From assembly GCA_010405405.1 (NCBI GenBank), contig MU004239.1, positions 1 through 64,000 of the forward strand: a DNA stretch of 64,000 nucleotides. Direction: 5' to 3'. Under the pieces are notes generated by a model. The model saw only the letters and a list, made by a program, of their open reading frames with translations, did no database searches and was not told the DNA's origin. Made by a program: the position numbers and the translations under genes. The stretch comes from Microthyrium microscopicum (lineage: Eukaryota). Positions 9,037 to 22,843 of the stretch are shown piece after piece. The number at the start of each line of letters is the position of its first letter. Position 1 is the stretch's first letter.

Positions 9037-9738
9037 ATGAAGTTCTCAACTGTCATAACTGCCGTGGTCGGCTCTGTCGCGGCTCAAACCACCACCTCAA
9101 CAGTTCCAACCACCACAATGACTACCTCTACCACACCATTCTCTGGATATCCTGGTTTCGGAGGGTTCGGCGGTTTCAGCGCTAACCCATCTGCCCTCTC
9201 AGCATTGAGCAGCTACACTTCTGCTCACCCAAGTGGTTTCAATAGCGCCGACTATTCTTCCTTCACCTCACAATATGGCCCAGCGCCATCATTTGGCCCA
9301 GGTGGGGGAGCCGGTTGGGGAGCACCTTTCGGTGTCGGGCCTGGCGGCTGGAAACCTGTGAGCGGCGCACCATTCGGAGGTGGAAACTGGGGACCATTCG
9401 GCTCAGCTGGCGCATGGACGTCTGCTGCATGGACATCTTGGTGGGATAACGACAAGTGTCCTGCCTCCAACTGGCCAGGTTGGACCAGCGGAACCTGGAG
9501 CACAAACGCGCCATGGACATCTTGGACTGCTTGCACCGCAACCGCCACTACTTCAAGCACCTATACCACTACCATCAGTGGTGTTGCATCTGTTGCAACC
9601 AGCTTTGGATATCAAGTCGCGCAAGCCGCTCAATCTGGCTCGTCATCTACCTCCGCGTCAACTGGTGCGGCACCAACCAATGCCATCGGCGGGGGTGTTG
9701 CTGCATTTGCTTTCGTCGGTGCTGTGCTTCTCGCTTAG
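9037..9738 (+). CDS. Secreted, probably GPI-anchored Ser/Thr/Gly/Trp-rich cell-wall protein
   Basis: Signal peptide MKFSTVITAVVGSVAA, S/T-rich stalks, C-terminal omega region plus hydrophobic tail (STGAAPTNAIGGGVAAFAFVGAVLLA); TATA-like TATAAA near 8867. Confidence 0.8.
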   Translation: MKFSTVITAVVGSVAAQTTTSTVPTTTMTTSTTPFSGYPGFGGFGGFSANPSALSALSSYTSAHPSGFNSADYSSFTSQYGPAPSFGPGGGAGWGAPFGVGPGGWKPVSGAPFGGGNWGPFGSAGAWTSAAWTSWWDNDKCPASNWPGWTSGTWSTNAPWTSWTACTATATTSSTYTTTISGVASVATSFGYQVAQAAQSGSSSTSASTGAAPTNAIGGGVAAFAFVGAVLLA

Positions 9739-10586
9739 ATGGGCCTGAGTGGGTAATTGGGGTCAGTGGATTCCAATTGTATTCATGGAGGTATTTATTG
9801 GCATAAAAGCACATGCTTAGAGCTTGGATCTTGTTTTGTACCCACTGAACTATTGTATAATGTTAAAATTTGATGACTGCTGGATTTGCAAGATACCACT
9901 CGTTTTACGGATTTCGAATCAAGGTTAGATTCTATTGGAAATATATAACCATAATTACCATATCATCTTGACCCTTGACTGTGATAGAAACTTGGGACAT
10001 TTTGGCGGACAAGTGAAAAGTGCTGCTGGGAATAGGATGAACAGTAAACAACTGAAGTTGGGGATACTGACAGATTGGGAAGGCACGCCGGGCGGATAGC
10101 TCGTGCCTGCCACTCAAATGTCAGTCACTAAGGTAAGTCTTAGATATCCAGTAGGGCAGGTACCTACCGGTAGATGGGCAACGTTGGTAACGTCGAGCTT
10201 CCTGTCTCATCTATGAATCGAGATACTAAAACAGGCAGATAACTTTAGAAAGCCGAGGACAGCCTCAAGGTATTGCAAGTGTCCGAGAGGACAATGTAAT
10301 GTATTCGAGTACCACTTTTGTATGCCGACCGCTACGCCCATTAACTATAAAACAAGAGTGCATGCATTGTACAACGCAAAACAAAACAAGCCAACTTTTG
10401 CCGCCCATGATGCGGTCATACCTCATGTACTATGTTACCAGCCAGTCCGGACCTTCAAGGACGAACAGCCATCAAAGGTATTCAAGAACAAAGGTAAAAC
10501 ACAAGACAAGTGAAATCTAAACTCTATAGCTGCTCCTTTCCAAGGACTGGAAGAGAGTAATCGAAGCTGAAGTGACCAAGGAGGCA

Positions 10587-12054
10587 TTAAATCATGCCAA
10601 TAATAGCTGAGGCCCCCGGCTCGCTGCTAACGTAGACAACATCATGTGTGTCCGAAAATCCGTTGAACTTTGTCGCAGAGCATTTGGTGTAGGCTAGTCG
10701 AGGTCAATAACAAAATGAAAGAGGGGAGAAAAATATAAACTTACCGCCCATGTCCTCAAAGTAGAGCCAGTCTCCAGTTTCAATCACATCATCGAAGCTG
10801 CAGCTCTGAGAGATGCAATCGATTCCGTCGCAAGTTGGGCCCCAGATGGAGTATTCGACCATATTTGGACTCTCATAGCCATCGCGATTGTTCAGTTGTC
10901 CATATAAGTAACGATTTCCAATGCTGAGAACCCGAGGAATAGGATTCTGGTGATCAAACATGATGCTCGAGAAATTGCCATAAACACCGTCGTTAAGGTA
11001 TAGCATGTAACTGGTAGTTCCAAGTGTAGGATCGGTGACGGTACGGCGCGCGATAACATGACAAGCAAGCGAGAACGCGGAGGAAACGTAGTAGCGACCT
11101 GGCTCGCCGATGATGCGAATGTGCGGAGGAATGTAAGCATCCAGAGCCTCAGACAAGTATCCAGCCATGGTTTCAAATGTTTCAGAACAAAATCCACCTC
11201 CGACGTCCAATGTATGCATAGTAAAGCCGAGTTCGCCAGCTTGGTCGAAAACAAAACGGGCATCTTGAACAGCCTTGATAAAAGCCTGGGGATCGGAAGC
11301 GCCAGAGCCAATGTGGAAAGCCACGCCAACAACATTAAGGTCTAGTCGGTGGGCAAGCTCCAACAGCTCTCGAGTGGTATCTAAGGAGGCCCCGAACTTC
11401 TGACTCAGGCGACACAAGCTCCCGGAATCATCTGTGAGTATGCGGAGATATAGTTCTGCGTCGGGAAACAGGCCTTTGATTTTATGCAGCTCATCGGAAT
11501 TATCAAAAGTCATCTGCTTGACACCAGTTTTGGATGCGTATCGAAGATGGGATTTGGTCTTGCATGGCTGAGCGTAGATAATGCGGCTTGGGTCCACTCC
11601 CATGGAGAGAACTTGGTCCATTTCGGCTTTGGACGCACAATCGAAACCGGTGCCAAGTGCTTCCAGCAATCGAAGAACTTGCTGATCAGGATTGCATTTA
11701 ACAGCTGTAGTTGTATTAGATACTTAAATACAGAATTAGAGACTCGAACTTACCATAATGAGGTTTGACACGATTCAGATGCGTCTTCCAGCGCATATGC
11801 TGACGGTAGATTTCACCGAGATCAGCCACAAAAAAGGCATCTTCATCACCGGCATCACAAGTATCGCTATCAATGGCAACGATGCGGTTTTTCATCGCTG
11901 CGCCAACCAAAGCTTTGGAAAGCGTGGCATTTTGAGCTTTATCGCACTGTTCATTGCCTTTCAGACCGCCATTTTTGGGACAGAGTGGGGAGTTGTTATC
12001 GTCAAGATAGGTCTCATCTGAATATTCGTGGTAATCAAAGGCAGATGGTGCCAT
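10587..12054 (-). CDS. SPE1: Ornithine decarboxylase, 3 coding exons (introns 11753-11705 and 10744-10694)
   Basis: AFFVADLG, PHYAVKCN (PLP lysine motif across the junction), FDCASKAE, FHIGSG, LDVGGGF, EPGRYY, WGPTCDGID, MGAYT; stop TAA at 10589-10587. Confidence 0.97.
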
Positions 12055-12191
12055 TCCCTAGCAAACAGGAGATGACAAAAAGGGTGGCGAATGAGATCTT
12101 GGAGGAAGGGTAAAGTCTCGACTGTTGACGACTTGGACTTGCTGAACGATGTGTGTGTAAGTTTTGAGGCGTTGTACTTCAAGGGCTCGTC

Positions 12192-12582
12192 TTAGGGGGG
12201 CCGAAAAGGCTCGTAAGACCTGCGAAATATTAGTCTTGGATTTTACGATGTTGACAAGTGCTCTGGGATTGGTAATAGCCAAAACTCTGGTTGGTTGGAT
12301 TGCGACTGTAGGTGTTGATGTTCACGCAACGATTCAGCATAGCCATGGCATTGATTCATTCCCTCAGGTGGTCTGAAGTTATGTGACGAATGCCCAGCAT
12401 TGAATTTTTACAAGCACTCCGATCCAACATGAATTTTCGGGGTTGACTCACTGATCCAAAGGGCGGTTAGGCTTCCCTGCCTCTTCCTCGGGGAGAGGAA
12501 GAAGTCCAGAAAACGTCCTATGCGGCAGCTGAGTGTTGTTTGTATCGATTTCGAGTAGCTCGTTAGGCGCAAGAAGTAAAAT
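12192..12582 (-). CDS. Non-AUG (AUU) upstream ORF of ODC (uCC), spliced join(12582..12452,12219..12192), 52 aa ending RPP*
   Basis: AAG-ATT start (A at -3); donor GTGAGT at 12451; branch CTAAT plus CAG acceptor at 12220. Peptide (M)LLLAPNELLEIDTNNTQLPHRTFSGLLPLPEEEAGKPNRPLDQSYEPFRPP*. The spliced leader has no AUG. Confidence 0.75.
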
Positions 12583-12632
12583 CTTGACAAGCCGGGAATC
12601 CAGTGGAAGATGAGGAGAGAAACCCTAAGAAT

Positions 12633-12997
12633 CTAGAGATAAAGTCAGTACCTGAGTTCAGAAGATGAGCGTGGCCAAGCTGGTGTGTGGTGTGGGTGAA
12701 AAGAAGACGAGATGAAGACGTAGGCGGCGTGAGCCCGAGGTGGCGATAAGGCTATGGATTAAGACACAGGCAGTGACAACTGGGTATCCAGTGGATAACT
12801 CCCGCCTTCACATGATGGGACAGTGAAATTGAACTAGAAAATGTTGTCGTGAATCCAAATTTTGCGAATTGCGGTTCGAATTCAATATAGGCAAGTCGAC
12901 CTGGATGGGTCACCGCCCAGGTTGCTTCAAGAGCAGCAATCCATACAGCAAACCGTTGCGAGCGGAAGAAGGAGGTTGAAAACAAAATAAAACATAC
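12633..12997 (-). other. Predicted first 5'-UTR intron of ODC mRNA
   Basis: Donor AAG|GTATGT at 12997, branch ACTGAC, acceptor TAG at 12633; removes upstream AUGs. Confidence 0.6.
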
Positions 12998-14298
12998 CTT
13001 TGTAGGAATAGAGCAAGATTTTGGGATGGTGATAGAGTGAGAGGTAATGGAAGATGGAGAAGTGGCAGAGGCTGCGTAATAAATCAAAGTGTGTAATGAC
13101 CGATGAGGCGGTGTTGCAATTAGCGTAAAGTAGTAGTACTTGGACCAGTAAAAAGGTAGAGAGAATTCCAGGATAATTAAGCTATGAATTAAAACACTGA
13201 AGAATTTTCGGTGCAGGAGTCAGTCTCCACTATCCGGCGCGGTACAAATCGGACTCACCGAAGAATCAAGATGATGTATCACATAATATTAGCTAATAGA
13301 GGTTTGTCACCATACCTTTCAACTTAAATAAATCTGCGGTAAGGTAGAGTATGGGGAATTGCCGACGGCACAAACAGTACTTGAATTATCAGGTACCTAG
13401 ATGTACTTGTACAGAAGCCCGTTCATAACTTCATTCTGAACCGCCTAGATCATTCGTTGTGTCAGCAAAAGACGCTCATACAAATTGCAATAATGTATGG
13501 TAGCAACACAATAGAATGCAAGCACTGTGACTTAATCGTCAAGTTGATCATTTACTTTCTGGACAATGGATGGGAAGTATCGCATCTGATGGCCCATGGG
13601 AGCAGGTAGAGTTATATACTACATTTCGAGGATTTTCTCCTGAGCCGAACCTAGTCTTTTGGACAAGTTTTGATCACACGGATCATGCGAGGTTATCACA
13701 CTTTATTTCGTATTCTTGCAGGCCCCTAGACTTGTCTGGGTCACGATTTCGTTTTGGCTATGCCGTTTCGAGACGCGTGAAAACGTCTGTGTCAAATTGA
13801 CTTTAAGATGCGGGAGCCTACATGTTCAATCCACAGCAGGTGCATCTGCTGGGGCACGAACAATACCACAATACAGCGATGTTCCAGCGATTAGTGAGTG
13901 CTAGACGAGTGCAGACGTGCCAGATTTAGTACCGTGGTCAATGGGCAAAGCAAATCACATACAAGTAGGTACTTTGTACCGAATACCGCAAAACATTATA
14001 CCAAGCAATGCAATAGCATAAGCTAGTCAATCAATTGACCCTTTTTTTTGGCAAACTTTCATGTGTATTTTGTTCAACATATGGGTGTAGGTTGTAGGAA
14101 CATACTTATATATTATAATATAAGCTCTATGAACTCTAAATTTTAATGTTACGGTAAGTGCACTCAGGCTCCTATGATTAGTCAAGCTAGTCCTTAAATA
14201 CCATCACAGTGATATAGAGCTGACTATGCTTTTAAGCTATCTACCAACGCCGTGCTATATGAACGTTCCCTGACCCGCAAGCTAAATCATAAACACTG

Positions 14299-20848: not shown

Positions 20849-22036
20849 TTATATTCCCCAAATCACAATGCGACCATCAACACCACTCGCTAGTAAAAGT
20901 TAGAAGGGATTTTGGCCATGCTTTGCGTTCGGACTTACTGCTGAACTTGCTAGCGCCCTGACCTGGTGGCCCATATACTCTGACCTTGGTAATTGTGTTT
21001 TGATGAACCGTATCAAGCTTGGTATCGTCCTTGGTTTTACCCTTGAGATCCATTTGTCGAAACATGTTAAGAGCAGATTCTTCGTGTCCGCTCGCCGCTC
21101 CCGGACGACTCTTTGTAGCCACAGTTCCAGAAAGCTGCCAGCCTGATTCCCCACCTTGCAACTTGTATGCTTGACAATCCTAGACACGATTAGAACAATA
21201 AATAGCCAGCTAGCGAAGTGACCTACATATCCTGCCGCAATGATCTCTGACTCTGAGCTCCAAATGACCCCAGAGAATGGAAGAAGCTGAGTGCTAACGC
21301 TGACAATGGCCTTGGGTGGTTGCTCCGGCGCGCTTGGATACACAACCGTCAAGCTGCTATCATGCGCGACAAAAGCTAAAGCGTTTCCGCTGGGTGAGAA
21401 CGCAACATCGTGAACCCAGCCTGCTGTACTGTTCATGTATTCTCCACAGACAGTATTGAACGGCAAACGCTCGCCCCAAGCAGATGGCTCCGGACGGGGA
21501 TCAATACCCTTGATGAAGCTTGAAAACACTCGCGCATGGCCATCGGTCGACGCCGCAGCCAAAAGCACCGAGTTTGGATGCCAGGCAACAGAGGTAATGG
21601 TACTGCGAATAGGCTTCTTCAAATGCTTTGAAACCCACCAGTTATCCTCTTCTTCAAAATGACAAATCGCAATTGTGCGTGCTCCCGAGCCAGCCGCAAA
21701 TTTCATCTCGGACGGTGACCAGCGGACGCAGGTGGCAGCGCGGTTAAGACGGAGGAGGACGAGAGTGGGCTTCCATCCGGTAGGAGACGGCTCCCAAACA
21801 TAGGCATTTCGGTCCTGAGAGCAGGTTACGATTTTGCCAGAGTTTGGTGCAATATCGACGCCTGTCACGGTCTTGTCGTGACCTGTCAGTTCATCCTTCA
21901 ATTGGAAGCCTTGGGGACCTCGTTTGTAGAGCTCGACGGTGGTGTCTTTGGCGACGGCGAGTGTATTCTGATCGGCGGAGAAGGAGTGGTCTGCGATGGG
22001 GTGGTGGAACAGATGGTGAACTTCTGGAGGGGCCAT
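20849..22036 (-). CDS. ARC40: Arp2/3 complex subunit 1 (p40, WD40), 3 exons
   Basis: IVTCSQDRNAYVW, WKPTLVLLRLNRAAT, NWWVSKHLKKPIRSTI, HQNTIT; last exon TSGVDGRIVIWGI*. Confidence 0.95.
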
Positions 22037-22843
22037 AGCTGTCAGCGATAGGAGTAGCTCTCTACTATCACGGGTTAGTTGTGAAGCTGGATGGTGTGCT
22101 GTCGTGCTGGAAGTGTTGAAGACGTCGAGGGGTGAGGTTGGTTGGCAGACGTAAGGCGGGCATTTGCAGCAAGCTCCACCCCCACTTTGGCATTTTCTGT
22201 ATCTTCAAGTTCTCAACTGAAAATTCCATCACCACTTCCTCCCTCCAGTAGGTACAGTAGTACAGTATGAAAGAAGAATTAAAATGCTACCCCATTTTTC
22301 GAAAGCTAGATCTAGTTTGCACCATTCATCTATCAGAACATCTGAGTCCGATGGAATCATCAAGATCAAGATGGAATGACTGTAGGGCCAGGCTCTCAAC
22401 CCAGCTCACAGAGCTTGCCCAGCCCTCTAACAGCTTATTGCTGCAACCATAGCGCACGTTACTGGAGTTTCCAATGTTGATGCTGTTAGTTGTCACGCAT
22501 TCAACGGAGACACCAAAGTTGAATGCTCGAGAATTCATGTTGGAAAGGCATTGGATATGTACAAGTCCAATCAGAATAATTGTGTAAGGTGGGAACATTT
22601 GGTTATTATCTAGGACTTCTGATGAAGGACAAGCTTTTTGATAAACCTGAACACGATCTTCATGACATCCCATGCGCACAGTGTCCTTTTTCATCAAGAA
22701 ATACTTCAATTCCCATAGAATGCCAATGTATTTATGGAAAGTCCAGTGAGGACCAAATTGCTGCCGCAATATTCTGACATATAGCACTCAGTTTTGGCTT
22801 GATAATGAAAATGCAAAAAAGAGTTTGCTATTCTCGCGGCTGC

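Follow-up and report, generated by a model that had tools for sequence, protein, structure and literature searches.

The ornithine decarboxylase (ODC) gene of Microthyrium microscopicum carries in the 5' leader of its mRNA an upstream conserved coding region (uCC) that is free of AUG codons in its frame, is divided by a spliceosomal intron and, once spliced, ends in Pro-Pro-UAA. The gene lies on the minus strand of the window, i.e., the whole stretch of 64,000 nucleotides that was analyzed (contig MU004239.1 of assembly GCA_010405405.1, positions 1 to 64,000). The reading frame is a genuine copy of a conserved uCC under purifying selection, not a chance product. An earlier reading based on the sequence alone had proposed a spliced, AUU-initiated uCC of the ODC and antizyme-inhibitor (AZIN) class, invisible to ORF finders; both the homology and a splice observed in a contig support this proposal, and the ATT start is likely, if unproven. 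Thus a non-AUG and spliced element that any ORF finder would miss, yet recoverable from raw sequence, has been upheld by independent tests.

Exon 2 of the predicted ODC gene is 80-83% identical to its best database matches, which carry the PF02784 and PF00278 domains and include proteins named ornithine decarboxylase from the Dothideomycetes Trichodelitschia, Lindgomyces, and Delitschia; the full-length protein is 71-77% identical to three named fungal ODCs. These identities place the window in the Pezizomycotina, without a near relative among the sequences of that database. Two public runs, X1 and X2, match the locus (positions 10300-13400 were compared); neither is recorded as RNA, and the label "RNA?" is a guess. 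The X2 match covers 210 nt of ODC exons 1-2 and none of the uCC. A single X1 contig (2347 letters, mean word depth 4028.7) spans positions 13026 to 10371 and runs through the uCC into the spliced ODC coding sequence, and the uCC therefore sits in the leader of the ODC mRNA. This contig contains three joints, at 12220-12451 (232 nt), 11705-11753 (49 nt), and 10694-10744 (51 nt), each with CT..AC ends on the plus strand, which correspond to GT..AG on the strand of the gene; the 12220-12451 joint was placed with the "cut +2" reading. Since the contig lacks both introns of the coding sequence as well as the leader intron, we infer that it must stem from spliced RNA and that the 12452/12219 junction is real. 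The splice between 12451 and 12220 that had been claimed from sequence is therefore seen as a junction, and it is used in the mRNA, on the basis of one contig of one run with this deduced RNA origin.

The X1 contig stops at position 13026 and continues into 23 loose adapter-like letters, which we take to be sequencing adapter; the contig end suggests a fragment end, possibly the 5' end of the transcript. Another X1 contig (2154 letters) lies on the opposite, plus strand and begins by position 13333 (13333-13400 in the window), so that ODC and its divergent neighbor have a common intergenic region of ~300 nt, as expected of a divergent promoter. On the plus strand at 9037-9738, downstream of the ODC 3' end, there is a 233-aa ORF rich in Ser, Thr, and Gly, whose start resembles a signal peptide and whose end is hydrophobic; it probably encodes a GPI-type cell-wall protein.

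The layout given in the sequence-only reading, comprising the ATT, donor, acceptor, frame, and spacer, was re-read on the minus strand and proved correct in every coordinate (Table 1). The spliced uCC has 52 codons and ends in ...EPFRPP-TAA, and its frame contains no ATG from the TAG at 12627 to the TAA at 12192 in the spliced form. The intron lies 8 codons before the stop and is ~4.6 times longer than the two introns of the coding sequence.

Table 1. Features of the ODC locus of the window, listed from the 5' end of the leader
Feature	Position	Strand	Remarks
ODC mRNA 5' leader, according to the X1 contig	12055..13026	-	972 nt unspliced, 740 nt spliced
Conventional AUG uORF	12927..12995	-	22 codons + stop; second in-frame ATG at 12944; upstream of the uCC
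Minimal uORF, ATG TGA	12808..12813	-	231 nt upstream of the uCC start
In-frame TAG closing the uCC frame	12625..12627	-	14 codons above the ATT
Putative non-AUG start, ATT	12580..12582	-	A at -3, context gtcaagATTt
uCC part 1	12452..12582	-	43 codons + 2 nt; holds the conserved QLPHR and LPL.EEE motifs
Spliceosomal intron	12220..12451	-	232 nt, GTGAGT...CTAAT...CAG; 6 ATG; donor from 12451
uCC part 2	12192..12219	-	last base of codon 44, then 8 codons ...EPFRPP, and TAA (12194-12192)
AUG-free spacer	12055..12191	-	137 nt, from the uCC stop to the ODC AUG (12054)
ODC coding sequence	10587..12054	-	455 aa; exons 12054-11754, 11704-10745, 10693-10587; introns of 49 and 51 nt

A metagenome scan with ODC exon 2 yielded 80 related loci (L001-L080) at 64-80% identity. 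In 73 of them, an ORF with a PP-stop end is located 329-603 nt upstream of the VKCN motif, and these ORFs terminate in ...PF[KR]PP-TAA or ...RYRPP-TAA at the same place as the uCC of the window. The 73 loci represent 59 distinct uCC sequences. The ODCs of the relatives are nearest to those of Dothideomycetes (Didymella, up to 97%; Bipolaris, 95%; Delitschia, 91%), Leotiomycetes (Lachnellula, up to 87%), and Lecanoromycetes (Pleopsidium, 94%; Lasallia, 81%). Among the seven loci without a uCC, six have too little upstream DNA, namely five with 4-331 nt and L079; in L079, where ~120 nt precede the ATG, a PPP-stop ORF runs into the ODC N-terminus and was rejected as a uCC. The sole testable exception is L035 (1075-1445), in which a frameshift falls between QLPH and LLPP and the uCC closes with ...FRPS and 7 further codons, without a PP-stop; this damaged uCC may reflect an assembly error or a real loss.

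Alignment of the window peptide with the 51 relatives that have a uCC of at least 60 codons reveals the common block QLPH[RK]..S..LPL.EEES.RPR...LGF.PF[KR]PP, with one clade ending instead in ...GSDRYRPP. The window peptide aligns end to end with the family and matches the common block on either side of its intron. A profile was constructed from the 51 relatives, with the window excluded, and searched against 3724 six-frame pieces of the whole window plus the spliced leader. The spliced window ORF scored 51.6 bits (E=2e-14) and reached position 89 of the 89 model positions, whereas the unspliced exon 1 scored 38.5 bits (E=2.3e-10) and ended at position 78 of 89; the exon-2 piece accounts for model positions 75-89. 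Thus, splicing is needed to rebuild the C-terminus of the family. One further profile match (E=0.12, at ~22204 on the minus strand) falls in the leader of a WD40-repeat gene (~21200-22050, minus strand), presumably ARPC1-like, coincides with a low-complexity TSSTT stretch, and was taken as chance.

The family evolves as a protein-coding sequence chiefly toward its end. Pairwise dN/dS in the C-terminal block has a median of 0.39 for the coding frame, whereas shifting the frame gives 1.22 and 1.01 (as the underlying alignment follows the in-frame peptide, this frame is somewhat favored), and the mean column entropy is 0.67, 0.80, and 1.09 bits at codon positions 1, 2, and 3, respectively. The N-terminal part, with a dN/dS of 0.74, is under weaker constraint. 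The conservation of the frame and of the PP-stop in 73 of 80 loci, together with the in-frame dN/dS, thus agrees with what the earlier proposal implied.

All 59 distinct relatives, like the window, have the PP-TAA end. Although 11 different codon pairs encode Pro-Pro, TAA is the only stop used (60/60 including the window), a pattern that hints at a role of stop-codon identity and context. The invariant UAA after Pro-Pro suggests a termination-stage stall that would depend on this one stop codon, in contrast to the stall of AZIN1 during PPW elongation. The base that follows the uCC stop is C in 46 of the 59 relatives and G in the window, and TAA-CAC is frequent.

At the other end of the element, 40 of the 59 relatives have AAR followed by a near-cognate codon, TTG (23), ATT (9), ATC (6), CTG (1), or ACG (1), located 70-85 codons before the stop. 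The context of this putative start is yCAAR, and an in-frame stop is often found close upstream. No in-frame ATG occurs in the uCC of the relatives except in L036, where it lies 138 codons above the stop and upstream of the putative start. Between the start and the main AUG of the 40 relatives, there are 0 ATG in any frame versus 124.2 expected. Upstream of the start, 8 ATG were found versus 55.9 expected in the first 150 nt and 32 versus 55.7 in the next 150 nt, and the depletion is absent more than 300 nt upstream.

In the window, the spliced leader is AUG-free only in its downstream portion. The 526 spliced nucleotides from 12812 to the main AUG contain 0 ATG versus 5.7 expected from base composition, and all six AUGs present within 12812-12055 (758 nt) fall inside the intron; our count confirmed the six ATG that had been attributed to the removed intron, where 3.4 are expected. 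The companion claim, that the spliced leader has no AUG at all, holds from 12812 to the main AUG and fails for the upstream 214 nt, which contain three ATGs. The X1 contig is unbroken from 13026 to 12450, so the leader retains these ATGs, at 12995, 12944, and 12813, and the uCC model needs them to be bypassed or followed by reinitiation. We considered a second leader intron on the minus strand (12633-12996), with the donor GTATGT at 12996, a branch-like TACTGAC, and an acceptor TAG ending at 12633, which would delete all three upstream AUGs; we keep it as no more than a candidate, as X1 is unspliced there, although contigs are blind to intron retention and minor isoforms.

The intron inside the uCC is absent in 59 of 59 distinct relatives, which read straight through its position. 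The ODC intron before VKCN is retained in 38 of these 59 sequences, which are thus surely unspliced genomic DNA (L036, with a contiguous HYAIKCNP, is excluded from this number). Within this sample, the uCC intron is therefore specific to the lineage of the window. The literature searched, a set outside which the 2008 paper on the Pezizomycotina uCC and its supplement fall, contained no mention of a uCC split by an intron, and the word "intron" occurs 0 times in PMC2811004.

If the intron is retained, the uCC frame ends at a TGA within the donor. It is conceivable that the polyamine sensor is splicing-dependent, with regulated retention serving as a second off-switch of ODC that is independent of polyamine sensing or layered on it; we regard this as decidedly improbable. 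The retained leader would lose the Pro-Pro-UAA arrest module and expose six AUGs ahead of ODC.

Splice-like signals were also noticed near the uCC of other fungi. In the clade ending in ...RYRPP, whose ODCs are nearest to those of Leotiomycetes, a donor-like GTRAGT is located ~15-25 nt past the uCC stop and is followed by branch and acceptor signals (loci L016, L018, L021, L022, L027, L030, L037, L041, L046, and L051); in L016, L022, and L041, the first ATG lies inside the putative post-uCC leader intron. These putative leader introns would thus adjoin the uCC while lying outside the uCC itself.

We consider it probable that the element of the window is an orthologue of the Pezizomycotina ODC uCC that acts as a polyamine-responsive arrest switch on ODC. 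The splice, the homology, the purifying selection, the non-AUG start context of the relatives, and the AUG depletion come from the data; translation from the AUU, stalling, and dependence on polyamines and eIF5A we only infer, by analogy with characterized systems. In the proposed mechanism, most scanning 40S subunits would bypass the AUU at 12582 and initiate at the ODC AUG, while the few ribosomes that initiate at the AUU would read 52 codons to Pro-Pro-UAA. High polyamines would inhibit eIF5A, which is required for peptide-bond formation and release at Pro-Pro-stop, and the ribosome would stall with Pro-Pro in the peptidyl-transferase center and UAA in the A site. The stalled ribosome would block scanning, and queued subunits would boost initiation at the weak start, so that ODC synthesis would be turned off at high polyamine levels. 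In this genome, the sensor would be present solely in the spliced mRNA. Conservation is concentrated in the last ~34 codons of the uCC. A stretch of ~34 residues is about one ribosome exit-tunnel length, so the conserved block fits a contribution of the nascent peptide to the stall.

Several alternatives to this picture need to be weighed, one of which concerns only the start. The window uCC is shorter than those of the relatives (52 versus 71-84 codons from the putative start), and in the profile alignment the residues that follow the ATT fall in the middle of the family peptide and not at its beginning, so the ATT may not be the ancestral start. Other candidate starts in the frame are CTG at 12603 (C at -3) and ATC at 12549 (G at -3 and G at +4), and the N-terminal half is under weak constraint (dN/dS 0.74). 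The same uCC could then start at CTG 12603, at ATC 12549, or at several near-cognates, the ATT being one of several or unused. We find this unlikely: the tcAAG-ATT-t of the window reproduces almost base for base the conserved near-cognate start context of the relatives, and among the near-cognates that a subunit scanning past the in-frame TAG would encounter, the ATT comes first in having a purine at -3, save a weak adjoining AAG. A caution is that, by our own arithmetic, an in-frame pair of AAR and a near-cognate would arise by chance in the 22 codons above the conserved block with a probability of ~5%. The AUU at 12582 is the most likely start of the uCC judging by its sequence context.

Other alternatives concern the role of the element. 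Conservation, a non-AUG start, and a PP-stop are compatible with any stalling uORF, and the element could be a conserved repressive uORF without polyamine sensing, which would act through constitutive repression, through nonsense-mediated decay (NMD; its stop lies far upstream of the introns in the coding sequence), or through another signal. The Neurospora crassa precedent leaves room for this view, since the leader region that contains its uCC confers ~30-fold ODC repression, of which ~3-fold is translational, partly relieved by polyamine depletion, and the role of the uCC is described without a direct test (PMC2811004). We nevertheless judge such a uORF rather improbable, as the host gene encodes the rate-limiting polyamine enzyme, uCCs with adjacent prolines probably arose independently before ODC homologues in four groups (PMC2811004), and Pro-Pro and Pro-stop are eIF5A-dependent contexts affected by polyamines in AZIN1 and HOL1 (PMC9082881; PMC11550727). 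The amino-acid-level conservation, which spans three fungal classes, might instead point to a 52-residue free micropeptide with its own function in trans. This is highly improbable given that the constraint is concentrated in the last ~34 codons, PP-TAA is invariant, the start is never AUG, and the N-terminal length varies from 52 to 84 codons, a pattern typical of cis-acting arrest peptides. Finally, fungal leaders commonly hold short ORFs and 5'-UTR introns, and an ordinary 5'-UTR intron could by accident have created a functionless ORF; in view of the profile match (E=2e-14), the 73 of 80 loci, the in-frame dN/dS of 0.39, and the 0 ATG versus 124 expected, we give this explanation practically no credence.

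The polyamine-responsive arrest switch thus remains our preferred reading of the element, and the class to which it belongs is known already; what differs here is the intron within the uCC, the shorter N-terminus, and the three AUGs further upstream. The analysis adds 59 distinct fungal ODC leaders and that of the window to the uCC class, and it sharpens the rules of the class: Pro-Pro-UAA is invariant, the start is UUG, AUU, AUC, CUG, or ACG and never AUG, the last ~34 residues alone are constrained, and the leader is AUG-free from the uCC start to the main AUG. The stretch between start and stall is not fixed and can contract from ~78 codons to 52. The intron-split uCC constitutes a natural experiment, showing that an exon junction 25 nt from the stop is compatible with the arrest module, and provides a handle on a possible coupling of splicing and translational sensing. 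The accepted picture of polyamine autoregulation is unchanged by these results.

The uCC of Pezizomycotina ODC was reported in 2008 (Ivanov, Loughran & Atkins, PNAS; via PMC2811004). Such regions are described in the leaders of ODC homologues of animals, Pezizomycotina, Basidiomycota, and Zygomycota, with probably independent origins; their length varies between ~100 and 22 codons, a pair of neighboring prolines close to the C-terminus is nearly universal, translation mostly begins at a non-AUG codon (AUU, UUG, ACG), and conventional uORFs often occur alongside (PMC2811004). By sequence criteria, the element of the window is a Pezizomycotina ODC uCC, although the positional homology of its start codon is uncertain. 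It resembles the published Pezizomycotina uCC in having a putative near-cognate start in good context, C-terminal conservation, terminal prolines, and accompanying conventional uORFs, and differs from it in being intron-split and in its shorter N-terminus, its 52 codons being within the reported range of uCC lengths (22 to about 100) and below the ~100 quoted for Pezizomycotina (PMC2811004).

Among the characterized systems, the vertebrate AZIN1 uCC shares with the window uCC an AUU in good context, a length of ~50 codons, Pro-Pro close to the end, and a host gene encoding an ODC homologue. In AZIN1, high polyamine acts via eIF5A to cause a stall at PPW, followed by ribosome queuing and more initiation at the AUU (PMC9082881; PMC11550727), and the logic proposed here would be the same, with a polyamine-dependent stall and queuing that raises initiation at a weak start. 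The two elements are without sequence homology, however, and belong to groups of probably independent origin (PMC2811004). In the window and all relatives, PP directly precedes TAA, with neither the W that marks the animal AZIN1 type nor a PS end, so that the stall would occur at termination and not during PPW elongation.

In this respect the window uCC is like the uORF of Saccharomyces cerevisiae HOL1, in which a proline-containing C-terminus adjoins the stop in a gene of the polyamine pathway, and a polyamine- and eIF5A-dependent failure of peptide release represses the gene through a termination stall at PS-stop (Vindu et al., 2021, via PMC11550727). The very short HOL1 uORF starts at AUG and has a PS end, whereas the window uCC is non-AUG, has 52 codons, and ends in PP. 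The window uCC would thus work in a similar way to the AZIN1 uCC and the HOL1 uORF while belonging to neither type, having no homology to them. The echo of the HOL1 peptide that had been perceived in the MLLL start of the window peptide did not survive comparison with the family: none of the 51 aligned relatives conserves LLL after the start, the motif of HOL1 is PS-stop, and since the post-start residues vary freely among the relatives, the likeness is coincidental. The uORFs of AdoMetDC mRNAs from animals, plants, and fungi likewise combine peptide-dependent and polyamine-responsive stalling with a location in an mRNA for polyamine biosynthesis, and they differ from the window uCC in their AUG starts, their peptides, and their host gene (PMC2811004).
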